Assembly: GCA_010093995.1 (NCBI GenBank)
Contig: ML992508.1
Location: 282,506-346,505, forward strand
Origin: Elsinoe ampelina
Lineage: Eukaryota
Length of the DNA: 64,000 bases
Reading direction: 5' to 3'
The notes under the pieces: model-generated
The model's input: the letters and a program-made list of their open reading frames with translations, nothing else
What the model was told of the DNA's origin: nothing
Databases searched by the model: none
Shown here: one piece after another, positions 2,084 to 42,048 of the stretch
Position numbering within the stretch: the stretch's first letter is position 1
Layout: each line of letters begins with the position of its first letter
Program-made: the position numbers and the translations under genes

Positions 2084-2438
2084 GATTGTCGTAGAAGCAA
2101 GCGCAAGGAATACGAGGTTGTCTGGCGTAGTGTCGGAAGAGATGAGGTCGTTGGCTTGTCGTTGCTGCCACCCGCGGGCAAACTTCGGCAGCTAAATGGA
2201 GCAAATCCGATTCGTCAATGGGACCAGCTTCATCACTTTTCACGTCACCACAATCTGCACCTGGTAGTTATTCCATCCAACTTACTACCAGAAAGTTGCA
2301 AAGCAAAGGCTCGTCTTCATATGTCAATATATATACTCGTTTGGTTGCCGTCATAAATACTACCACAAATCTCGGGCTGGTAGTTTCCAGACCCATTGCA
2401 CTACCAGGCCGCAGCCCCCCTGGATCTCGCGCTTGGTA

Positions 2439-3404
2439 CTACCAGGGGCTCCTCCAGTAGAGCTCATACCAATCATCACGCTGTGCCAGAGTCGCCCTGA
2501 CCAGCTCCATGGACTCCACACTGTTCCCGCTGGTGTCAACCTGATCCGATGTTAGCAAAGCTTGGCTCACAGACTGACTGGATGCGCCTCACCGTCATGA
2601 TCTTTCCCTCAAGCTGGTAGTACGCCACGATCGGCCCAAGCTTGTCCTTGAACTCGGCGAACCTTTTGTCGAACAACGCCTCTGTGTCATCTCTGCCCTC
2701 GAGTCTACGGGTGAGATACCTCCTCTTGGCCTCATCCTCTGGGCAGTCGAAAAGCAGCACGAACTTGGGATCCCCGATCTGCAATCAATCTTAGCGGAAA
2801 CCTCCAAATGAGCTGTAGCAACTCACGGCCTTCTCTACCGCAATGACCTGGTTGATGTCGCGGGGGAACCCGTCAATGATGAAACGGTGACGACCCTTTT
2901 CTTTGTGGGTGTCCATGTGCTTGGCGAGGATGGCTGCCAGAATCTCGGCTGGGATGAGTTCCGCTATGTTGATGCACATGGTGGCAGTCCAGTCCAGCAA
3001 GGCGTCTCTCTTCTTGACTGCCTCACGCAGGATGTCGCCGACAGATAAATGGACGAAGTCGTACTCGGAGGACATGTTGAGGCACAAAGTTCCCTTCCCT
3101 GATCCTGGAGCTCCTATCGGCCTTCATCAGTCATCTATGCTAGATGTCAGGATTTTAGCTCACCAATCACGAAGACGATATAATCTTCAATGTGAAAATC
3201 CAGCTTGATACTCGGCATTTCGACCGTCTCAATCTCGTTCTTCTTCGGAGACATGATTTTCTTGGCCTGCTTGAAGTACTGCTCGATATTAGCCATGTTT
3301 CCGATGTGTTTGGTCACAATCGCAGCAGTGATACCAGTGGCAGCGGTCGATCTGAGAGGTTTCGAAGTGAAGCAAGTGAAGGCAATCATTTTCACAAAGC
3401 ACAT
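2439..3404 (-). CDS. Nucleoside monophosphate kinase, adenylate kinase family (divergent UMP-CMP kinase-like), 4 exons
   Basis: Removing GT-AG introns 3114-3163, 2779-2826 and 2541-2592 gives P-loop VFVIGAPGSGKGT, YDFVHLSVGDILRE, FIIDGFPR and VLLFDCPE..AKRRYLTRRLEGRDD...KRF. Stop at 2439-2441. Start is uncertain (ATG at 3404, 3389, 3296 or 3254). Confidence 0.9.
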
Positions 3405-3454
3405 GCTTGCCGCCTACTTTGGGGTCGACCTTTGTCGACATTCACATGCTCGAC

Positions 3455-3461
3455 TATAAAA
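3455..3461 (+). promoter_or_regulatory. TATA box (TATAAAA) in the short divergent kinase/viperin intergenic region
   Basis: Canonical TATAAAA about 115 bp upstream of the viperin ATG (3576), followed by a CA/CT-rich leader. Confidence 0.5.
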
Positions 3462-3575
3462 GACCGCCCGACTCCGACCCCTGACCTTCCTTGCCTCAAA
3501 CATATCACACAGACAGCAGTCACACACAAGATCTTCTCTTCACAGCATTTTGGATACAATTCGGACAACAACATC

Positions 3576-4595
3576 ATGCTCCTCACCTTCGCCACGTATG
3601 TGGCCGACCATGTCTGGCTGCAGGTCATTCTCGCTGTCCTGGTCGCCGTCATCACGACCCTGCCCCTGGTCCCAGCTCTTCGCATCTTGGCCGAGGACTT
3701 GACCACCACTCGCCCCATCAGTGTCAACTACCACTTCACCCGCCTCTGCAACAAGTCCTGTGGCTTTTGCTTCCACACCGCCCTGACCTCTCATCGCGAG
3801 ACCTCTGATCGTGCAAAGGCCGCTCTCCATCTGCTCAAGAAGGTTGGTATGCGCAAGCTCAACTTTGCAGGAGGAGAACCTTTTCTGGCCGCCTCGTTCT
3901 TGGGCGAGATGGTCGACTTTGCCAAGCAGACTCTTCGCCTTGAATCAGTTTCCATCGTCAGCAATGGATCCTTGATCACCGAGAAGTGGATGTCTCAGCA
4001 TGCTCACAACCTCGACATCCTTGCAGTCAGCTGTGACTCTTTCGACGAGGAAGTCAACATCGCCATTGGTCGTGGGTCTGGAGATCAGGTCACAAAGCTC
4101 TACCAGATCAAGGAGTGGTGCGTCAAGTTCGGTGTCAAGTTCAAGATCAACACCGTCGTCTGCGCACTCAACAAGGACCAGGACATGAATCATCATATCC
4201 AGCAGCTTGAGCCCTTTCGCTGGAAGTGCTTCCAAGTCCTCGAAGTCAAGGGAGAGAACGATGGCAACGACACTCTCCGCTCTGTCGACCGCTTCTTGAT
4301 CACTGATGAAGACTATGCCAGCTTCTGTAAGCGTCACAACCAGCAACCATCCTTCGTGCCAGAAAGCAACAAGGTCATGGCTAAGAGCTACCTCATCCTC
4401 GACGAGTACCTTCGCTTCCTCGATCGTGACGGGAGATCTCCAAGCGGCTGTATCCTGGATGTCGGCGTCAAGAAGGCTTTGGACAGTGTTTTCTGGGATC
4501 AAAAGAGCTTCGTCGAGAGGGGTGGAGTTTTCGACTGGACCAGGGAGGAGACCGGTTGCAAGAATGACGCTGCCGCCAAGGAGCTCGAATGGTAA
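3576..4595 (+). CDS. RSAD2: Viperin / RSAD2-like radical SAM enzyme (ddhNTP synthase family), 339 aa, intronless
   Basis: SVNYHFTRLCNKSCGFCFHTA (CxxxCxxC), NFAGGEPFL, SIVSNGSLI, AVSCDSFDE, FKINTVV, RWKCFQVL, VPESN..M..SYLILDEYLRFLD, ILDVGV, RGGVFDW and a terminal Trp (LEW*) all match viperin hallmarks. Hydrophobic N-terminal segment. ATG at 3576 in ATCATG context. Confidence 0.96.
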   Translation: MLLTFATYVADHVWLQVILAVLVAVITTLPLVPALRILAEDLTTTRPISVNYHFTRLCNKSCGFCFHTALTSHRETSDRAKAALHLLKKVGMRKLNFAGGEPFLAASFLGEMVDFAKQTLRLESVSIVSNGSLITEKWMSQHAHNLDILAVSCDSFDEEVNIAIGRGSGDQVTKLYQIKEWCVKFGVKFKINTVVCALNKDQDMNHHIQQLEPFRWKCFQVLEVKGENDGNDTLRSVDRFLITDEDYASFCKRHNQQPSFVPESNKVMAKSYLILDEYLRFLDRDGRSPSGCILDVGVKKALDSVFWDQKSFVERGGVFDWTREETGCKNDAAAKELEW

Positions 4596-5487
4596 TTGCG
4601 AGGCAAGCGGGCCGGGGAGATTATCGGACGGACTGCTATCTTCAAGTGGATCGCCTCAACCAGAACTCACGGGATGAGGAGGATATCACAGCGCCATCTC
4701 CTGGTGGTCGCTCTTGAGTTGCTGCATACACTACAATCGTGAGACACTTTCCCATTTCTTGATACCGCAGAAAGATCCCATTCCCTCATTTGCATCTTTG
4801 CGATACCTTGTCAACTTAAAACAGCGATAGTCTTCGACACATGACATGTGATTACCGTCGTCGGCCTATGACATGTGCCTCTCTACTGCCCTCACATAGA
4901 GGGTTTATATACATTGTTGACGGCCCTGTCTGTCAGCAAACCACTTGAATGACCGGACGGTCAGTCTAACGGTTAAGAGCTGCTTCGTAAACCAGGTCCA
5001 CGACCGAGTTTCGATCAGCGACGACATTCCACTGAGAATTGTCCCTCTGGTTCGAGTCCTGACGATGGTATGCGAGCGACGGCGATAATTGAATCGTCGG
5101 ACTAGTATGGTACCAGATCTCGCCTCTTAAACAACCCCCCAGAGTAAGACAAAGTCGCAAGGAGTGTTCGAACTGATCTTTTTGCATTTTGGTGAGGTGA
5201 GGTGGATGTGAGAATCGCTGTGACTAGGTGGTGGGAGAGCATGTGATGGCAGATGCTAGCTCATTTCTGGCGAGACTGCCAACGAGACAATTGTGTCCGC
5301 TTTCCGCTTGCTGGCATTCTCGTGGGCCATGTTATTGACGACCTTTCTCTATGTTAGATCTGCATTCATCTCTTCCTTTTTACTTCACACTTCACATACC
5401 TCAAACCCTTCCATCGATCATTAACCAAACACTCCTCGCACACGAAAATCGGTCACTGCAATCACAAACTCCATAGCTACGAGCGAT

Positions 5488-6819
5488 ATGTCGAAACCCC
5501 TGCAGAAAGCGTTTGAAATCGAGCGTAAGTTTCCCTGCCTCTCACCTTTGTTTTCCATGAATGCCGGCTCGCCACCATTCGCTGCCCTTCGCCGTCTGCC
5601 AGACCAACGATTCACGGACACTTATCTGGACTCATGTGGACGCCTCATGGCCGAAGGAATATACATTCGCCGCCGCAACGGAGACTACGAAGCCAAGGTT
5701 TCACTTGGTGGCACTTTCACAAAGTCCCAATTTCAGGAGATCGATGGCAAGGATGACGTTGAGCTGTACCTGAAAAAGCATGGAATCAAGATTGGCGATC
5801 TAGCCAGTATTGCCAGGTTCAGCACTCACAGAATGGCTTGGATCGCCGACGAAGAGTTCCTGGTGGTGATGGACAAGACGTGCTTCGGACATCAAGTCGG
5901 TGAGGTTGAGTACATGGGAGATATGGTACGTGCGACATCCGCATCCTTCACATTCGACGCTGACCACCTGCAGGAGGCATCTACCAGCAACAAGGTCAGC
6001 AGCAACTCCAGCGCGACATCCGAACATATGCCCGATGCCTCCCCCGCCTCCTCACTCGCCGTCTTCCTCGACGACACCCTCAGCAAAGTCGTCGGCTTCC
6101 TCCTCACCACCTTCACCTCCGACATCCACCCCGCCTGTCCCACCCCTTCTCCCAAGCGTCTACCCAGCAACCCCGCCACAGTCTCCCCCACCACCAACCC
6201 AGACAACACGGACAGCGACAACACCCGCGAGGCGCCCTCTCCCCAGCGCACCACCCACTCAAACATCCACCCAACCACCATCTCGACCTCCCTCCTCACC
6301 GAATTCTCCAGCCACATCCAAGACGCTACCCCCTCCCTCACCTCCAACAACACCTCCCCTCCCTCCTCCCGCCCTCACGCCCCCACCCACCCTCACTCCC
6401 AGCCGACCTCCCCCCTCACCTCATCGGAGAAGGCCCACCTCGCACTCGCCGCCCAGAAGATCGACGCCTTCATGTCCCGCTACGCCTGGGCTTTCAACCC
6501 GGGTAGTCCCCGCACCGATCCTACCGGCGTTGATCCAGTGAGCAGCGCTGCCCGCCTGGCCACCACTTTCGACAGCGGACAATGGGAGGAAGGGCAAGTG
6601 GTGGGGAAACTCACGGCTTATTTCAGGAGGTACGGGGTCCCCGAGGGATGGGGGAGGGGTCGTGCTTCGGTGGGTGTCTCGCTGGGTGATGCATCGGGGA
6701 GCGAGATGGGGTGTGAGAAGCGAGGTCGGTTGGTAAAGGGGAGGGGGGAAGGGATAGATGGTGGTCGTAAAGAGGTGGTGGGGACCGGGTGGTGTGGGGT
6801 TATGGATTATGGGTTGTGA
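5488..6819 (+). CDS. CYTH / triphosphate-tunnel metalloenzyme, thiamine-triphosphatase-like, with a long low-complexity insertion
   Basis: N-terminal ExExK motif (FEIERKF), FTDTYLD...L...GIYIRRRNG.YEAK, F.T.R..W, VVMDKTCFGHQVGEVE, then KIDAFMSRYAWAF and VGKLTAYF after an S/P/T/H-rich insert. Confidence 0.85.
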   Translation: MSKPLQKAFEIERKFPCLSPLFSMNAGSPPFAALRRLPDQRFTDTYLDSCGRLMAEGIYIRRRNGDYEAKVSLGGTFTKSQFQEIDGKDDVELYLKKHGIKIGDLASIARFSTHRMAWIADEEFLVVMDKTCFGHQVGEVEYMGDMVRATSASFTFDADHLQEASTSNKVSSNSSATSEHMPDASPASSLAVFLDDTLSKVVGFLLTTFTSDIHPACPTPSPKRLPSNPATVSPTTNPDNTDSDNTREAPSPQRTTHSNIHPTTISTSLLTEFSSHIQDATPSLTSNNTSPPSSRPHAPTHPHSQPTSPLTSSEKAHLALAAQKIDAFMSRYAWAFNPGSPRTDPTGVDPVSSAARLATTFDSGQWEEGQVVGKLTAYFRRYGVPEGWGRGRASVGVSLGDASGSEMGCEKRGRLVKGRGEGIDGGRKEVVGTGWCGVMDYGL

Positions 6820-7451: not shown

Positions 7452-10400
7452 CTACCTATTCGACAGCCCCTCAAACATATTCTCGCCTTCATCCCAGCCC
7501 TCGTCATCATCGTCAAACGGCTGCTGGTTCTTGCCATACCCTAAGAAGTCCGTCTCGTATTGCTGCTGCTGTCCACCAGATGCACCTGGATTACCACCTC
7601 CGTACCCCCCCTGACCTTGTCCGTGTCCATTCATGCCGTTACTTTGCCCGTAGCCTTGACCTGAGTATGGGCCCTCGGGAGAGCGGCGGCCAGCGAGAGA
7701 GCCTGTCTCGGCTGCCTGTTGTTGATCTTGAGAGCCTTCGAGGCGTGCCTGTTGCTGGAGAATGTCAGTGACTGTCACACGTAAGGGAACTAATGAGACT
7801 CACCTCCTGCCAACGCTGGTACTGGACAAACTCCTCGGCCTGTCTATCCTCATTGGACTTGGCCCGCTTTTCTTCTCGTTGAGATTGCTGAGCCTGCTGT
7901 TGCTGCTTCTGTCCCTTGAGCTGCATTTGAGGGTGCATCATTTGTACTTTGGCAAGGTAGCTATACATGAAGTTGCTCAGTAATACTTGGCTGTACAAGG
8001 CGCGCTTGGGGTTGGCGAGCTTGATGTGAGCCATGCGATAGATGGCACGTTCTTCGAGTATGGAGAAGCGGGTCCAGTTATAGTCGATGTCTGGCTTGAG
8101 AACGCGTGGAGGAGGCTCTGGGGACAAGCTGCGTTGTGAGTTGCGTTTCTTCTCGTCCGCTGCGGAGCCGGAAGACTTGTTCCGCTTACCGCCACCGAAG
8201 AGAGCGGAGAGTAGGCCGTCTTTTTGCTTGGTCGTGGGCTCATCTTTGGATTTCCGGGAGGTCTTGGCACGCTCCTCTTCGAGCTTGATATCCTCGCGAT
8301 TAAGTACTAGGCTTTCTCGTCCTCGCGACGGAGCAGCAGAGTCGATAGAGGTCTGAAGCACGTCGAGCCGGGTCTTGTCTGCCGAGGATGCGGCGAGCTT
8401 GCTGCTCACTTTAGGCCGCCGGAGCTTGTCCTTGTCTCGCTCCTTGTCCTCTCGTTCCTTGAGCTTGGCGGCTTCGCGCTCTCTTTCCTTTTCCCGTTCG
8501 CGCTCACGAGCTGCCTCCTTTACAGCTTCACGATCAGACTTGTCAAGCTGCTTGTCTTTGTCCTTTTCCCCACCAGTAAGCCATCCCCAAGACGTCTTCC
8601 GGCCAGCTTTCGAGTCGGCTTTCTTAGAGTCATAGGTTGGCACCTGGGTAAGCTCGTCAGTACGAGAGCCACCACTACCCGGCCACAGTGATGGATGCGA
8701 GGATAAATCGTCCAGAGTGGAACTCTTCTTTTCTTCCGAGTTGAGACGAGATCGAGCGCTTTGTACGAGAGGACCTTGAGGTCGAGGGGCTGGCTGCGCT
8801 GGCTGCTGTATAGAAGATTTGCGTTCGGGGAATATGTGCTGTGGTGCTGGCTCAGGTGGTGGGGGCGTTTCTATTATGTGCGGAACAGGTGCATTAGGAC
8901 CCGGCAATTGCGCTGTCGTCCATCCTCCTCCTGTGGCAAGTCGCGAATGGAATTGGTTAGTTCGTGGCTCATTTGAATGCTCTGATTGAGGTCGTTGCTC
9001 TTCTGGCGTTGGTGATTTCCGGATTTGAGGCACGTGATCTTCCGACACTGTTGATGGACCAAGCTGAGGTCGCGTGCGTCGACCGGGTCTCGAAAAGTTC
9101 TCTGCAGGTTCGGAGGCTGATGAGGCGACTGGATCTGTCCGCACCCGCGAAAGACCAGGCACCGGCTCATCCGCGCCCAGTACAGGCGATTGGGCAGGTG
9201 AATCGTCGAGGTCATTATGTCTTCCAACCGCTCTTCTGGACGCTGGTGTCCTTTCGCCCTTTCGTAGACTTCCTCGCCGGTATGCTGTCCTTGTTGACCG
9301 CTTCAACCCGCCCGGAAGACCTGGTATCATCGGCATATCATCTCCAGCAGGTACTCCAATTGCTGAATCCTGGCTCTTTCTCACAGTATCGATGCTCAAC
9401 TTTCGCATTAGGCTTGACGGATCGTTGACCAGATTCTCCAGCTCGGCCAAGTTGGCTACCGTCTCGTGCTGACCACTTTCTGACCGTTGTCTTTCCAGCC
9501 GCTCGGCACCATCCTCATATCCTCTGTCATTATTAATCTGCCTTGATAGCATGCTCTTCTTCCTCTTGATCCCGCCAGAAGTCTGTCGCTCGAGTCCGAC
9601 TGGAGATAACGATTGACCCTCGTCGGATAATCTCTTGAGACGTTCCACCCTATCCTCCACAAAAGTCTTGAACTCCTTTGGTGCCAATTCGGGATGTAAT
9701 CGTGCCGGAACCCAAAACAGCTTTGACGGGTCATCCTCGTCGGCGGTAGGCGAAGGTGGTAATGCTGGTATGCCGAACCCTCCTCCAAATGCCGGCAAAT
9801 CGGGATCGGCCATATCAACATTCATGGACATTCGGCGGATTGCTTGGAGATTGCTGAGCTCCTGAGCGACGGCGGCCGGGCTGGATTCGTAGTCGATATC
9901 ATTGAGCGGGAATTGCTGTGTCGCTGTGTTGTCCGACGAAGACGATCTACTCAGCGTCGGAGGTGGTGATATCGGTGCTCCGTCTCCATGACCCAGACTG
10001 GACTTTCTCATGGGTTCCGCGCTCTTACTGCTTTCTCCCCTCACTTGTATCCGGTCCTGCATGGATGCGAGCTGATTTGGTGATCTCGGCGGGCTTGTTC
10101 GCTTTGTGTCGAAATAATTAGCACCCTCGTATGCCTCTTTCGGAGTCGTCAAGAAACTGAGCGGTCTCGTCTTGCCGGTCTGCTGTTGAGGGCTCGGGTA
10201 GTCGTCATCATCACTGCCATACATTCCTCCGATAGCCTCTGTGACATGATGATTCGTGTCGCTGATGGATATTTGAGGAGCATGACCGCGGCGGGAGGGA
10301 TGTCGTTCCGAGCCCAACGGCCTTGTTGTGGTTGTGGACTGGGCGGAGTTAGTTTTGGTCCCGTGGTCAAGTTTGCGCGACCACACCGCAGCCATGAGGG

Positions 10401-10457
10401 GAGTGTTGGCGGTGTATTTGATTCAGGCGGCTCTGGGATAGGTGGACGTACCTGCAT
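7452..10457 (-). CDS. ZDS1: Zds1-like protein (PP2A-Cdc55 regulator) with Zds_C domain
   Basis: Zds_C motif RFSILEERAIYRMAHIKLANPKRALYSQVLLSNFMYSYL and LFWVPARLHPELAPKEF. A 2-codon first exon (MQ, 10452-10457) precedes intron 10339-10451 (GTACGT...ACTAAC...CAG). A second intron near 7755-7803 leads to the final exon ending at 7452. Confidence 0.9.
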
Positions 10458-10782
10458 ATCAGAAAGAGTCGCTGGTTGGTCGAAGGGCGGTCATTCAGGC
10501 TGAGCGGCGTGATGTTGCTCCTTTCGAGCGGGCTCACCACCCAGGACCATCTGGCGCCGCTATAAAGATGCTGATGATTGGTGAATGTGCGCGGGATGTC
10601 GTACAGAAGGGGTCCGAGGCGGTATCTTTGTCGTAGGCAGTGTATTCGAGATAATCAGCGGCACTTGGTCAAGTTGGAATCGCGAAGTTGGACAGCCTCA
10701 GACCAATGAGAGCGAAGAGACCAATAAGAAGCCAATCGGAGCCGGTTTCTTGGCATGCATAGCCTCTTTTCTAGCTGTTCTG

Positions 10783-13659
10783 GGGCGCGTTCGGTTGGAG
10801 GAGGTTGCTCTTTTGAAAAGAGGCCGATTTGGCTTTTTTAGCGTTGATTCAAGAGGTTGCTGTTGTAAAAGAGGCTCTTCGATAGCGCGTTTAGTAGATT
10901 AAAAAGAAGAGGCTACCTCTTTTAGAAGGTGGCTGTGCATAGAGGAGTTATAATTTTGCTTAAAGATTGTTAACGTACATAAACTCTATATCTAATTACT
11001 TACTATTATAGCCTCTAACACCCTTAATAAAGTAGCAGAGATTGCTACTACTATACTAACTTAATCGGAGGTGCTTTAGATACCTCCTCTATCTTAATTA
11101 CTAGTAAAGGGGAAGTAGCCTACTAATATTAATTAGACTAAAGAAATAGTAGAGGTTACTCTATACTCTCTCCTTAACTTTTTTAACACTAGTAGCCGTG
11201 CTAGAGGAGTCTTTTAGCTAGAGGCTTAGACCGGAGCAACTAAGGCAGTAAAAGAGGTTACTAGTACTTAAGCTAAGAGGCTTAATAAAAGCAAATTAAA
11301 GCTTAAAATTAACACTTATAAGAATGCCTTAAGGTGCTAGTAAATACTAGAGAATAACTCTAGATAGAAGAAGACTAAAGCTAGCCTTATAATAGCTAAC
11401 TCTAAAGTTATAGATAACTATTTTAAAGCTTATAAGGAGGTAAAGATATTTAGATATAGGCTAATACCTTATTATAACCTCCTTAGTACTATCTTTAGTA
11501 ATGTTACTACTACTAGAGCATTTACTTAAGGCATTTAAGATATTACTATCAACTCTTAATTATTAAATTATCTAGCTAACTCTCCTTCTCCCTCTCTATC
11601 TCTAGCTCCTTTAAGAGCTAGTACGCCTATATAATTAATAAGGAAGCGTATAAGTAAGGTTTGTAATTTAACACTAAGTAGAATCTAGCAGAGATTAAAT
11701 AGTACTAATAAGGTAGTAAGTAGTATTAAAAAGGTAGCTAAGTAGTTAAGCTAGATAAATAACTATTTAGAGTAAAGTAGTACTACTATAGTTAGTAAGG
11801 GAGTAATTAATCTACTATTTACTAAGTTTAAATATCTTACTACTAATTATACTATTATAGTTACTAAGTTACTAGAGACTCTAGTAAAGGCTAGGCTCTT
11901 TTCTATAGCCTTAAAGTAGTAGTATATAGCTATTATAAAGTAAGCACTTTAGAAAGAAGAACTACTAATCGATAAGAAGCTACTAGACTAGCTAGATAGA
12001 AGTAAAATTAAGATAGAAGAAGTTAAGGTTAAGGTTAAGAAGAAGATTAAAATTTGTAGCACTACTAACTAAAGCTAGAGATAGAGATTAATAAAGAAAT
12101 ATATAAAGGGACACTCTTTAAGAAAGAAAAATATCTCTATATCTATTCTATACTATTAGTAGTATTTTTTACTCTCCTCTAATGTCTTTAAGCCTATACT
12201 AGCTCTAATTACTATATTAGGCTAGTGCATATTTAATATTAACCTCCTCTTCTCTTTATCTCTTCTTAATAATTATACTATATCTACATAGCTATTATAT
12301 TATACTTCTTTATTATTACTAGATTATTATTCCCCTTAATAGTATTATTACTATCTTCTATAGTAACTACTATTGTCCTTAAAGCCTCCTTAGAGAGATT
12401 AAGCTCCTTAAGGCCGCTATAAAGATTAATCTAATTATAAAGGCTAGTAAGTATATATACTAGCTTAACTTAAGTATCTATACTAAATTCTCTTATAGTA
12501 TTAAATATCTACTACTACCTCTTAAAAACTCTAAAGGTTCTTTTAATAATATTATATAAGGCTAAGTGCCTTAGATTAAATAGCTCCTTAGAGTTCTCTA
12601 GCTTATTTACTACTTTATATTAGTCTTAGAGGTAGTACCTTATATCTCGATAAGGTATAAGAAGATCTAGCATATTTAAATATCTAGTATTACTAAGGAA
12701 GTAATAGCCTTCTAGCGCTCTAAAACTATTAACTTCTCGTATAAAGGTAAGTACTTAACTATTATAAATAGAGCTCTTTTATCTAGCTAATATATAGGTA
12801 AAATTACTATTAAAATTACACACCGCTAGCATATTCTAAGATAGCTAGCCTTTTTAATTTCTCTAAGCTTATAACTTACTAAGTATATAAGTATAAATAT
12901 AAGATCTATCTAGTGCTTCTATATAACTAGTAAATTAATAATATTTGCTCTTAATCTTCTCTAGCTAGAGATTGCCTTTATCTTCTAGTAAAGTAATAAC
13001 CTCTTAGTAGATCAAAATTAGTACCTCTAGCACTTAGTAGAAGACAGTAGAGATAGTAGCTTTAGAGTAATAAAACTAGTCTTGTATATTACTAAAGAAG
13101 GCGCTATAGCTATATATCTTTAAGAAGATTAAGAGCTTCTACTCTACTAAGATATTATAGCTAGCCTTTAGTAGCTTATCTCTTTATAACTTCTCTACTA
13201 AAGGTATAAAGCTTAAAGGCTATAATTGAGTTAAGTAGTATAATTAGTAAGTATCTAGTAACACCTCCTTTGTTAATCTTTTACTATTAATAGAGGTAAT
13301 AGATCCTTCTAGCCTTACTCTAGAAGGCTAGTAGTTATTATACTAATTACTAGCAGTAGTAGTAGTAGCACTAGCACCTTTAATTATAGCTTAAAGGAGT
13401 TATTTATCTATAGATAAAATAGTTTATAAGAGTATAGAGAGTATAGAGAGTATAGCCTCCCTTAAAAAAGGAAAGTTAGAGTAAACACTCGAGAAAGAGG
13501 CTAGCTATACCGGATAAGGGCAATTACGCGAAGAGGCACTTCTTTTTTAAAGAGTTAGTGCTAAAAAAGAGCCTCCACCAAACGCGTAGCCTCTTTTTCA
13601 ATCTACCGGCCTTAAATCACGCCAAAAGAGGCCGTTTTCAAGCTCCACCGAACGCGCCC
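10783..13659. mobile_element. Full-length PIF/Harbinger DNA transposon, RIP-inactivated
   Basis: TIRs GGGCGCGTTCGGT (from 10783) and ACCGAACGCGCCC (to 13659), with 3-bp TSD CTG at 10780-10782 and 13660-13662. Interior is AT-rich with TpA excess. Minus-strand transposase remnant LIPYRDIRYYL*...ENSKELFNLRHLALYNIIKRTFRVFKR at about 12505-12720; plus-strand Myb/SANT-like remnant at about 11210-11450. Confidence 0.9.
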
Positions 13660-14026
13660 CTGGAACCCGATGATGAATTGACACAAAACACCCTTGAATC
13701 ACTCTATCTCTTTGCTGTCCGTCAAACCCTACCCGTCATACCTTTTCCAGACTCGACGTGGGCAGGGGCATGTGCCTCATCGAGTCAATGCCCAATACCG
13801 GCTGCAGATCAATATAGATGAAGCAAAGCCACTGGTCAAACCATGGATCAGCCAATCACTTGTCGCAGCATCGGCACCTGTAACACGCATCGACACAAGC
13901 AGAGAGACATGGAGGATATTTTGTAATCTTCATTGATACCACTTCGTTCACTACTGAAAGCTACAAAGAACAGGTTAACCCCAGCAAGGTCGATCACCGA
14001 CCAGCAGATTGCAGAGTCGCCTTTGA

Positions 14027-37858: not shown

Positions 37859-38788
37859 TCACTGACCTTCTGCTTTGCTCTTCAGCAGCGGCTCTATTTC
37901 ATCCTTTTTCTGCTTCAACTCATCCTCCAGGATTGGTCGTGGGATCTCCAATGCATCCAGCGTCCGAGTGTAAGTGATGCCTCCCATTCTCGCGATAGGT
38001 CGCAGAACTTCTGGGTCAATCAAGTTGCGGTCCTCATTGATGGCATCCTCCCTCACCCAGAAGTTGGTGCCTTCGATTACTGCTAGGGTACCAGTCTTCT
38101 TCCCAGGCGTGGATCTGCTTTCAAATTCCTGAGTGTTGAGAAGCTTGCCTTCGATGCTGAAAACCGCCTCCTTGACTCTTGAAGGCTTGACTGTCGTTGA
38201 TGGTGCCGGGTGGAGCCCCGTCACTGCCCATTCCGAAGTGCCATACGGAGTGTTGATGGCGGTTGCGTTTGCTGCTTCAACGAAGTGCTCGGAGATGATG
38301 TTGATGACGCACTCTCCCGTCTCCAGCAGGTTCTTCAAGGTATCTTTCGCGTTGGCCTTGCTGCTGGCGAATCCGATGGTGAAAACTGGAGGATCATGGT
38401 TGACTACCTGAGTGTAACTGAAGGGGGCCAGGTTGGTGCTCTCGCCGTCCTTTGAGGATGTGCTGATGAAACCAATGGGACGGGGGACAATACCCGATAT
38501 GAGAAGCTTGTAGTTGGCCACGGCTGGTCGTCCCTCTGCGTATGGGTTGATCTCCACATGGTCCTTCTTGAGGCTTTCGCCGCCGTCATTGGCCCCTGAT
38601 CCGTACTTCCAGCTTGGATCTTTGGTTTTGGTATATGTGAACTTCTTCGATTGGTCCCAATCGGGCCTCGACGCCTGGACTTTGCTAAAGTCTCCGTGAG
38701 GGTTTCGCTTCACGGATTTTTCTGCATCAAGGTGCTCTTCGTTTGGCAAGCTCGCCTTTGCTGATGAGTCGGCTGATGGGGGTGCCAT
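37859..38788 (-). CDS. Flavin reductase-like (FMN-binding split barrel) protein
   Basis: YKLLISGIVPRPIGFIST, NLAPFSY, KDTLKN..ETGECVINII and RPIARMGGITY. Start at 38788 or 38860. Confidence 0.9.
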   Translation of the reverse strand: MAPPSADSSAKASLPNEEHLDAEKSVKRNPHGDFSKVQASRPDWDQSKKFTYTKTKDPSWKYGSGANDGGESLKKDHVEINPYAEGRPAVANYKLLISGIVPRPIGFISTSSKDGESTNLAPFSYTQVVNHDPPVFTIGFASSKANAKDTLKNLLETGECVINIISEHFVEAANATAINTPYGTSEWAVTGLHPAPSTTVKPSRVKEAVFSIEGKLLNTQEFESRSTPGKKTGTLAVIEGTNFWVREDAINEDRNLIDPEVLRPIARMGGITYTRTLDALEIPRPILEDELKQKKDEIEPLLKSKAEGQ

Positions 38789-39069
38789 TGACCCCGATAA
38801 TTCAAGTGATCTGTGGGATGCGTGTCTAGGATCCTCGAAGTATATATGAGTATCGGGCAAAATACCTCATCATCGAAGGCCGTATCTACCCACGCTGCCG
38901 TTCATGACGTCGGGGCCGATTCACCCACTCTGCGGCACATTTCCGCTTCAGCGAGTGCGCCTACTCTATTCTTCCTTTCATCCCCTAATGCGGTGAAAAT
39001 TTTCAGTGACTTTTAGCGTCGGCCTCAGCCGCCTTCGATTTGTTAGTAATCAACACCAAAAAAGAAGGG

Positions 39070-41375
39070 ATCTGCAGTATTCTATAGTGACTAGCAGAAC
39101 CTCGTAAATAAAGCTAAAGAACTTAGTATAATAAGCTAATATTACTCTTATAAAGGTATAATAGCTTACTAATAGCTAATAAGAGTTACTTCTTATAATT
39201 ACCTCTTCCTCTAGCTCCTCCCTCTAGCTCTTATAATTCACCTCTAGTAGTTACTAGAGTCTCTTTTTAGCGTGTAGTAATAGAGGACTTTACTAGTTCT
39301 AATATTAAGAATAATATATACTTTATAGCGTATAAGGAGGCTAAGATAGCTAGAGCACCTATAGCTATAGAGGTACTAGCGCTAGCAGTTAAGGAGGAGA
39401 AGGAGAAGAAGGAGAAGGAGGCTAGTCCTATACTAGCGCTAGTAATAAGTAATAATTTACTAGGGGATAATTCTCTCTTTAAGCTAGTAAAACTTAACTA
39501 TTAAGATCGAGTAATTAAGCTACTACTAGAGTTAGATAAGGTTAACAAGAGTAACTAGCTAATTTGCCTATTCTAGTTGTTCTTTATAGACGAGTTATTT
39601 AAGTACCTTACTAATTATACTAATAGCTATACCTCTTTAAGAGGCGCTAGTAAATTAACTTCTATAGTAAAGAGACTATAACCTTAGAAGAAGATATTAA
39701 AGAGAGAGCTAATAATCTAGTTAGCTTAAATTATCTATTTTAGACTATACTAATAGTCGCTTATTACTAAGTATTAGAGTTATAATAATTAGAGGCTATA
39801 GTATCTTATTACTTAATATCTCTTACTTTAGTACTTCTAGTAATTAAAGCGCTTCTTCTACGTCTCTAATAAGCTTCTCTCTCTATCTTTAATATAGTAG
39901 TAATCTGTCTTTAACAAGGTAAAGAAGCTAGTAGAGTACCTCTTAGAGCACTAGTAATAGTATATTACTCTAGCCTTAGAGGTTATAATTAATAAGTCGA
40001 TAGTAAAGTTTAGTAGTCAATTATACTATACTTACCTAATAAAGAATAAGCTAATTATTAAAGGCTATAAGATACTTACTCTCTATAAGTATAGATATAC
40101 CTATACCTTTCTCTTTATAAGTAAATTATTGTCTTATTATAGCCTACTATTAATAAGGCTACTAGAGGTAAGTAGTATAGAACTATTATAAACTTTATAT
40201 ACTATAATTTACCTTATATACTAATTGCTAAGGATACTCTATCGGTTTGCTCTATTCTATAATAACCTCTTTAGTAATATACTACTCTTTATTATACTTT
40301 AATAACTAAGTGTTAGCGCTACTAGTATAGTAAGGCTAACCTCTAAGTTCTATCTAAAGGCATATAGTTAGATTAATAAGAAGAAGTTACGCCTTAAATA
40401 GGGCTAATTAAGTACAATTTTATCTTTATAAACGAGCGCTTAAATAACTACTTTACCTCTTTAGATAGAGGAGTTAGTTTACTCTATCCTCTAGTAAGAT
40501 TACCTTCTTATTTAATTTCTTACTACACTTTACAAACTACGCGAACTACTAGAAGCTATCCGCTACTAGCTAATAGTCTACTACTAAGATAAGTAGTTTA
40601 AAGAGTATATATAGAAGATATAGAGTAAGGTAGCTAAGAGGTTACTTTAGCTACTAGTAGTAGTAGTTAGCTATAACTATTTTATAGGCTTAGTAGATAT
40701 TACTAATTAATATAGAGCTACTTATTTGCTTTAACTAAAGGCCTTACAAAATTAGCTACTACTCTTCTTTTAGCTACTAGAGTGTTCTATTATTAACGCC
40801 TTCTAAATTAGTACTTAAATCTATAGAGATAGTTTAGAGTATAGTTACTACACTATCTATAGACTCTTCTACTATTAATTAGCTTAGTCTTTACTAGATA
40901 AGGGCATTAGATTAATAGAGGCTAAGTAGCCTCTAAACGTTATATAGTTATAAATAAAAGCTAGAGCGTAAGTTACTAGCAATAATTAATAGTTACACCG
41001 CTATAGTTATATAACAAAGAACACTAAGCTACTACTAGAGCGCCTTACTTAGCCTTACCTCTATTAAGTTACTAATGTATTAACTCTCTAACACTGCTAT
41101 TATTACTACTAGCTTAAAGCTTAAGGCTTAAAAGAGAAGATATACTAGACTTGTAAGAAGTGCTTAAGGTATAATAAACTACTCTATCTCTAAGACTAGT
41201 ACTTTAAGAAGTTTCACTAGTACTCCCTCTAGTAATGATAAATTATTCTTATTTCTATACCAATTAAAAGCGCTTAGCTTTAACTACAATCCGCTATTAC
41301 TCCGGCATTAATTAGTTATAGATTTATAAAGTTATTACACCTTGAATTATTAACGTTATTAAGCTTAAAGAGGTG
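39070..41375 (+). mobile_element. piggyBac-like DNA transposon remnant, RIP-inactivated; ends not resolved
   Basis: AT/TpA-rich block. Plus-strand remnants IKRFFYVS (~39844) and VIINKSIVKFSSQLYYTYLIKNKLIIKGYKILTL...YTYTF (~39982-40110) revert under RIP rules to the piggyBac-type motif VDESMVKF.GRS....MKNKPI.EGYKI. No matching TIR pair or TTAA TSD found. Confidence 0.8.
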
Positions 41376-42048
41376 AAGATTGCCGCCAAGAGCGTGATCA
41401 GCGCGATCGACGAGTGCTCCACTCACCAAAAACGCACGAGGGGATTCCGCTAATTTTCTGGATTACATGCCGAGCATATCGAGACTGACAGCAATCCATA
41501 AGCATGGGAGCGGATCCAGGATGACAATCGTGGGCCGATCTTGGCCCACTGATTAACGGTGCTTCGATATTGAAGTGCAATGCGAACAAGTTGTCGTCGC
41601 GCTATCCCAGCAATGCCCGCTCCGGTATTGGGAAGCACTTGAGGGAAAAGGAAACAGAATGACCCGTCGGCTCATTGCTCATGCTTAATGGTAATCATTT
41701 GATGAGCTAGCTTTGCAGGAGTGCGTTGGACAATTCGACAGCGAGGCTTTCGGTGACCAGTTGCCGCAACCTGATCCCGGGGCAACACAATCGATGCGGC
41801 GAATATGTTCTTCCCTCGACCATCAACGCATCTGATCAGTCTCAGATATGTCAATGTATCATCTGTTAAGGAGCGAAGAACCAAAGATGCGGCGAGTCAG
41901 TGGCGGTTGGCGGCGTGAGAAGGCTGTCTTGGCACTGGTTGACCCCCTCAAGCCTCCGATTCTACTTGAGCCTTCATTGTGATCCTTCCATGTCTTTGCT
42001 CGTCCAACTCGACCTTTGTCACTCCTTTCGTCTCCTAGTAGATGGGCC

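Follow-up and report, generated by a model that had tools for sequence, protein, structure and literature searches.

The closest described counterparts of the locus examined here are the vertebrate viperin region and a set of fungal viperins. In humans, RSAD2 (viperin) and CMPK2 share a promoter/enhancer from which they are transcribed in opposite directions (PMC12889620). For fungi, a literature search on viperin with a kinase returned the preprint of Shomar et al. alone (bioRxiv 10.1101/2023.09.13.557418), whose text places UTP-pocket fungal viperins no more than three genes away from a kinase of the CMPK1 type, calls this linkage convergent with the CMPK2 linkage, and proposes that it serves a UTP-specific viperin function; it also gives CMPK2 as raising viperin's substrate. 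That text contains neither "head-to-head" nor "promoter" (Fig. 4b and Supplementary Tables 5–6 could show either), and it mentions a triphosphatase/cyclase domain solely for four viperins that are fused to one, not as a common neighbor. The word "kinase" does not occur in Culbertson and Levin (PMC10732462), and the accessible parts of PMC5625025, PMC11218377, and PMC10913068 hold nothing further on gene orientation.

The locus described here lies in Elsinoe ampelina, within a window of 64 kb (the whole stretch of DNA analyzed); NCBI assigns to this species a protein identical to exons 2–3 of the kinase described below. It shares with RSAD2-CMPK2 an adjacent, divergent viperin and NMP kinase, an arrangement that has a common regulatory region in vertebrates; it differs in that CMPK2 is thymidylate kinase-like, the vertebrate product is ddhCTP, and co-induction has been shown there (PMC12889620). 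The pairing of a fungal viperin with a non-CMPK2 kinase, read as convergence, was the inference of the original prediction and is already in print. What is added here is the conserved orientation, a third partner with a CYTH domain, and the claim that the kinase is a dedicated paralog, which it is not called in the available preprint text; Fig. 4b and the Supplementary Tables may hold these as well. Overall, and with moderate confidence, we explain the locus best as an antiviral nucleotide cassette of three genes that has been conserved.

The viperin gene is a single exon encoding 339 aa (3576–4595, plus strand), identified by PDB match, family model, and alignment. Its closest solved structures are those of T. 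virens viperin (6B4C/7N7I, E 1e-124); it passes the NF038283 viperin model (242 bits against a cut-off of 180) and falls below the cut-off of the narrower TIGR04278 model (368 bits against 450). An N-terminal hydrophobic helix spans approximately residues 17–35, and the radical SAM CxxxCxxC motif (C58/C62/C65) is invariant in the alignment of fungal viperins. In the beta-8 loop, FLDR aligns with the T. virens FLDR, and Arg284 is invariant in all 25 aligned sequences; by matching of numbering, it would correspond to T. virens Arg257 and to the position of mouse Cys314. An arginine in this loop marks a UTP pocket in the scheme of Shomar et al. (10.1101/2023.09.13.557418), in which T. virens viperin and an Aspergillus homolog produce ddhUTP; the window viperin very probably does so too. 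A search of the E. ampelina genome found strong viperin matches only to the window copy. The protein ends in LEW (4584–4592), which fits the [LIM]-[DES]-[WF] cytosolic Fe–S loading signal described in PMC10245660; LEW or LDW ends 22 of the 25 aligned fungal viperins.

The kinase gene is read from the minus strand in four exons separated by three GT..AG introns. Exon 1 extends at most over 3164–3404, with in-frame ATGs at 3404, 3389, 3296, 3254, and 3218, the true start probably being one of the last three; a C>G strain variant at 3301, present in three of four sequencing runs, falls in its nonconserved N-terminal extension. Intron 1 (3114–3163, 50 nt) lies within the P-loop, exon 2 (2827–3113; PF00406, E 6e-23) encodes the P-loop, the NMP-binding domain, and DGFPR, intron 2 (2826–2779, 48 nt) has a noncanonical branch site, and exon 3 (2593–2778), supported by the PF00406 match and by comparison with orthologs, encodes a short LID. 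Intron 3 (2592–2541, 52 nt) is followed by exon 4 (2439–2540), which ends in the stop codon TAG (2441–2439) and whose C-terminal residues agree with those of P0134 from E. batatas. The motifs named in the original prediction are all present (GxPGSGKGT, which is split by intron 1, HLSVGDILR, and DGFPR), though position 3114, given as the start of the feature, is merely the acceptor of intron 1, and the gene continues to 2439. The intron 1 position, judged by eye, coincides with an acceptor-type AG in 15 of the 19 related loci in which the P-loop motif was found, the motif not being found in 6 of the 25 loci examined.

The kinase belongs to the ADK family (PF00406), and its exon 2 finds yeast URA6 (uridylate kinase, 1UKY) as the best PDB match, followed by human CMPK1 (1TEV). 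No match to PF02223 (Thymidylate_kin) was detected in kinase exons 2–3 or in E. batatas P0134; PF02223 occurs in this genome at a single locus, on another contig, and a query from L069 (a metagenome locus discussed below) returned nothing from the genome. Because it is an ADK-family protein, with URA6/CMPK1 as best PDB matches and no thymidylate kinase match, the kinase is by family assignment not a CMPK2 ortholog, in agreement with the original prediction of a nonorthologous kinase. Nor is it the housekeeping copy: besides the window kinase, the genome holds a canonical URA6 and a pair of adenylate kinases with long LIDs (ADK1- and ADK2-type), which brings the other ADK-family loci to three. 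TIGR01359 (UMP-CMP kinase) is the highest-scoring family for both the window kinase (121 bits) and P0134 (124 bits) despite scores below its cut-off of 207.6, which the housekeeping URA6 exceeds (239.9 bits). The kinase resembles URA6/CMPK1 in its short LID, catalytic residues, and exon 2 matches, and differs from them in its sub-cut-off score.

Aligned with the URA6 of its own genome, the window kinase is identical at 66 of 201 columns and retains 39 of the 72 URA6-invariant columns. The P-loop K/T, DxLR, DGFPR, Q, the LID arginines, and the short LID are kept, with a gap at one Asp column of the LID. Three columns invariant in URA6 are changed across the 31 viperin-linked kinases compared (A62 to V in 26, I90 to L in 27, and I172 to F in 27), and the window kinase, like most of these, carries Val at the Ala of SAG and Leu at the Ile of GxIVP. 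We take both positions, from work on adenylate and UMP-CMP kinases, to form part of the pyrimidine-NMP pocket. A pyrimidine preference is predicted, but only tentatively in view of the sub-cut-off TIGR01359 score and the altered NMP-pocket columns.

A rapid tree search on 76 rows gave one branch that parts the 31 viperin-linked kinases from 24 URA6-like rows (SH-aLRT 89); long branches make the root unsafe. The window kinase lies on a long terminal branch inside a 33-row clade (support 97) with other ascomycete proteins; the tree omits L021 and L077 (<135 aa), L019, and L052. Because of the unsafe root, the claim is confined to the following: the kinase appears to be an old, dedicated, and diverged paralog of the short-LID URA6/CMPK1-like group. 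Over the compared region, it and the E. batatas protein are 93% identical.

Conservation of the pair was assessed in the best 80 of 248 metagenome viperin loci, which form 56 groups at 90% viperin identity; the loci were gathered with fungal viperin patterns, so unlinked kinase or CYTH copies are under-sampled. Among these best 80 loci, an ADK-type kinase lies beside viperin in 37 (36 of them head-to-head), corresponding to 25 of the 56 groups (24 head-to-head). Many of the remaining groups are short contigs: the kinase is present in 24 of the 31 groups whose contigs extend 1 kb or more upstream, and in 16 of the 19 full-flank groups, which have 2.5 kb of sequence on each side. Since the groups are related by descent, the head-to-head count reflects retention of one arrangement and not 24 origins. 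In four of five named fungi checked (Sphaceloma, Melanomma, Parastagonospora, and Trichoderma ceciliae), the kinase and viperin carry successive accession numbers; in Aspergillus coremiiformis, the numbers differ by three. The sole exception to the head-to-head order (L049:6689–7365) has its kinase on the strand of viperin, downstream of it, and lacks a CYTH gene within its flanks. Another locus (L041:4891–6054) has a viperin without kinase or CYTH and a C-5 cytosine methylase close behind; its compact layout resembles that of a prokaryote or a virus. L092 (OZ255840.1, 1647–4573) carries a fungal-type viperin, a head-to-head kinase, and a CYTH gene under the title of a bacterial MAG (Lapillicoccus sp.), and is probably mislabeled fungal DNA.

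The third partner is a thiamine-triphosphatase-like CYTH gene with an open frame of 443 aa (5488–6819, plus strand), recognized by its match to CYTH genes near other viperins; a literature search for CYTH as a neighbor of viperin found no paper. In the best 80 of 248 loci, a CYTH gene is near viperin in 31 loci and 19 of 56 groups, including 15 of the 19 full-flank groups, 13 of which have the kinase as well. Its position and strand relative to viperin vary (upstream minus 8, upstream plus 5, downstream minus 4, downstream plus 2). When CYTH was instead the starting point, a search of another collection returned two loci, one with the complete trio, and the window copy was the only CYTH match found in this genome. 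In an alignment of 14 copies, E10, E12, and K14 (ExExK), Y46, and K70 are invariant, and the window copy keeps them all; the profile built from this alignment matches mammalian THTPA (E 9e-26). The likeness to THTPA (CYTH/TTM; 3TVL, 2JMU; PMC8615392) includes ExExK and Y46/K70 as the equivalent of the Tyr39/Lys65 dyad. True thiamine triphosphatase is marked by Trp53 and by a nearly absolute specificity for ThTP. The equivalent thiazole-stacking residue is tryptophan in 12 of the 14 CYTH copies and tyrosine in the window copy, which further differs from THTPA in being fungal and viperin-linked and in carrying a long insertion.

Recognition of the window copy itself is less direct. A Pfam scan of the protein returned no family, against matches to PF01928 in 9 of the 14 aligned relatives; a phmmer search of its N-terminal part against the PDB gave no match; and the atlas placed it at 0.91 to CYTH with a recognition value of 2211, below the tool's mark of 2300. 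A low-complexity Ser/Thr/Pro insertion of approximately 170–190 aa (5925–6420) is absent from the 13 relatives, and a probable in-frame intron of 48 nt is predicted near 5925, where the insertion begins.

CYTH genes also accompany viperins of a different type. In L053:2929–3828, L066:3–548, and L069:2805–3923, CYTH is head-to-head with Cys/Lys-type (mouse-like) viperins, those of L053 and L069 being closest to mouse viperin and that of L066 being assigned by its loop motif. In L069, the CYTH gene lies upstream of viperin on the opposite strand, with a PF02223 kinase behind it. L053 has a GDPD phosphodiesterase immediately downstream, another possible nucleotide-handling partner. That CYTH accompanies both kinase families suggests replacement of the kinase inside an older cassette. 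The original prediction held that the architecture arose independently here; this is supported only in part, as the combination of viperin, CYTH, and PF02223 kinase in L069 points to an older cassette. In-place displacement of a CMPK2-type kinase by the fungal kinase, within an older viperin-kinase-CYTH cassette, would fit at least as well as assembly de novo and is the likelier of the two; we give it an even chance, on a base of one CMPK2-type locus and two CYTH-only loci of nonfungal type.

The geometry of the locus was largely as originally described. The CAT at 3402–3404 is a minus-strand kinase ATG, the viperin ATG is at 3576, and 171 bases separate them, giving a spacer of 3405–3575; this value is a minimum, reckoned from the first of five in-frame ATGs, for which the spacers are 171, 186, 279, 321, and 357 bp. 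The kinase orthologs of Elsinoe australis and Sphaceloma begin approximately 10 residues ahead of the P-loop strand, and that recorded for E. batatas begins at the equivalent of 3296, so a later start is likelier and the true ATG-to-ATG spacing is probably 279–357 bp. With 171–357 bp between their start codons, the divergent genes lie within the distance of about 1 kb that is used for bidirectional promoter pairs. The distance from the viperin ATG to the kinase P-loop motif (397 bp) is below the median of 542 bp for 16 other loci, but five of the 16 are shorter, so that the spacing is not extreme for the family.

A single TATAAAA does occur in the spacer, at 3455–3461, on the viperin strand and 121 bp upstream of the viperin ATG; no TATAWAW is found on the kinase-facing strand of the spacer. 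The 64 kb window holds three copies of TATAAAA in total, both strands counted, and shuffled spacers contained TATAAAA in 204 and TATAWAW in 624 of 10,000 trials, placing the element modestly above chance. As only 3 of 22 other loci have TATAWAW within 250 bp upstream of viperin, the TATA element is not a conserved feature. Spacer 6-mers recur in up to 15 of 22 loci against a shuffled maximum of 13, and no 7-mer or 8-mer exceeds the shuffles; with mononucleotide shuffles as a weak control, none is clearly above them and no common spacer motif is claimed. A sigma-70 promoter scan gave nothing, its consensus being bacterial and irrelevant for a fungus.

RNA contigs from four runs of three studies (four of nine listed runs) cover the kinase and viperin; the CYTH gene lies outside the compared stretch. 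The runs, whose records carry no RNA label, were judged to be RNA from three spliced joints in the neighboring gene and from near-empty flanks. That neighbor, a minus-strand gene with an NAD(P)-binding SDR fold, has three introns spliced in the contigs; it is presumably NDUFA9-like. It includes a 13-nt micro-exon between two introns (1798–1914) in all four runs. The contigs are strandless and lose rare forms, their depths cannot rank genes, and missing cover (as for pieces of viperin in run X6) is not evidence.

Cover over the kinase gene, spacer, and viperin is continuous and unspliced (2260–4759), beginning at 2260–2321 and ending at 4744–4759, with nearly empty flanks at 2128–2259 and beyond 4760. 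No spliced kinase joint appears in the contigs of any of the four runs: introns 1 and 2 are traversed unspliced in all four and intron 3 in three (in X3, two contigs meet at 2590–2591), and the spacer is spanned without a gap in three. Left unspliced, a kinase RNA would stop after 23–85 codons. The simplest reading of this cover is a plus-strand RNA that starts at the neighbor's promoter, lies antisense to the kinase, and continues into viperin, with the stretch without cover at the neighboring spliced gene's 5' end (2128–2259) as its candidate origin; such an RNA would hold 27 upstream ATGs before viperin. A contig of run X1 has putative adapter remnants of equal polarity at both ends; this would be a weak hint of plus-strand RNA if the library was of the dUTP type. 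Overlapping divergent RNAs with a poorly spliced kinase are the alternative to antisense transcription.

The original prediction had a bidirectional promoter driving both genes. Conserved divergent order favors common control, but the sampled material, which has no spliced kinase mRNA and a spacer bridged in three of four runs, gives no support to an active bidirectional promoter; antisense read-through fits the unspliced cover better, and silence of the kinase is unproven. The rival reading has a constitutive core promoter of approximately 171 bp driving both genes of a pair assembled de novo in fungi. The divergent order in 24 of 25 groups (from the best 80 of 248 loci) and the divergent human RSAD2/CMPK2 pair with its common promoter/enhancer (PMC12889620) argue for it, and the kinase-side end of the cover at 2260–2321 could be the kinase 3' end. 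We nonetheless regard it as unlikely: the lone TATA faces viperin, the gap-free spacer comes with no spliced kinase form, the unspliced RNA would terminate early, and the CYTH partner common to both kinase types points to an older cassette and not to assembly de novo.

The three-gene antiviral cassette accommodates these observations as follows. A membrane-anchored viperin would use UTP, with CTP in trace amounts, and produce ddhUTP, a chain terminator, as its close characterized homologs suggest. The fast-evolving kinase, with its catalytic residues, would feed pyrimidine monophosphates toward the triphosphate pool, the role of CMPK2 in animals; that it serves the viperin pathway, most probably through substrate supply, we consider likely. 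The CYTH enzyme may take the gamma-phosphate off ddhUTP, which would switch viperin's action off, protect the cell itself, or recycle the product. This is the weakest step, and clearance of ddhNTP by CYTH has slightly less than an even chance. The observed head-to-head order would let one upstream region induce viperin and kinase together, and whether the two are co-induced in this manner upon infection we judge to be evenly balanced. In unchallenged cultures or tissues, where no spliced kinase mRNA is apparent, the kinase would probably be overlaid by plus-strand antisense or read-through RNA.

To our knowledge, fungi have no interferon. The fixed head-to-head order and unspliced kinase RNA make this a defined locus for antiviral induction in fungi, and the conserved third gene, with its intact triphosphate tunnel, offers a handle on a ddhNTP off-switch; the control of fungal viperin without interferon and the clearance of ddh-nucleotides are the questions on which the locus bears. 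A more far-reaching version holds jointly that the ancestral eukaryote viperin cassette comprised kinase, viperin, and a THTPA-like protein, with CYTH as ddhNTP eraser; that fungi swapped CMPK2 for a retooled URA6 paralog, while animal THTPA descends from the eraser and might hydrolyze ddhCTP; and that a long plus-strand RNA from the neighboring housekeeping promoter keeps the cassette off. Taken together, these propositions are improbable.

The changed pocket columns could be read differently, with kinase and CYTH acting on the product of viperin, in ddh-monophosphate salvage or phosphate cycling, and with a pocket adapted to the ddh sugar. The family-wide A62 to V, I90 to L, and I172 to F changes at URA6-invariant columns are consistent with this, as is a housekeeping URA6 that already supplies UDP. 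However, the statement that CMPK2 raises viperin's substrate (10.1101/2023.09.13.557418) argues for a role on the substrate side. A literature search on the roles of these pocket columns gave none, and we consider the product-side proposal quite unlikely.

Decay or silence of the kinase in this species, with the gene order as leftover microsynteny, would agree with the lack of spliced kinase RNA in all four runs, the noncanonical intron 2 branch site, and the long terminal branch. It is very unlikely given the intact frame and catalytic residues, the 93% identity to the E. batatas protein, and the conserved intron position, and contigs in any case lose rare forms. Least probable of all, to the point of being scarcely credible, is that kinase and CYTH handle thiamine triphosphate, which AK1 makes and THTPA breaks, with viperin linked for some other reason: THTPA provides the nearest solved structures to the CYTH family, AK1 synthesizes ThTP (PMC8615392), and the Trp53-equivalent is tryptophan in 12 of 14 copies, but this gives no reason for viperin linkage across two unrelated kinase families, and the window copy has tyrosine at the thiazole-stacking position.

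Elsewhere in the window, two AT-rich blocks (10000–14000 and 38000–42000) have a GC content of 0.33–0.43, against about 0.54, and are possibly mutated repeats.
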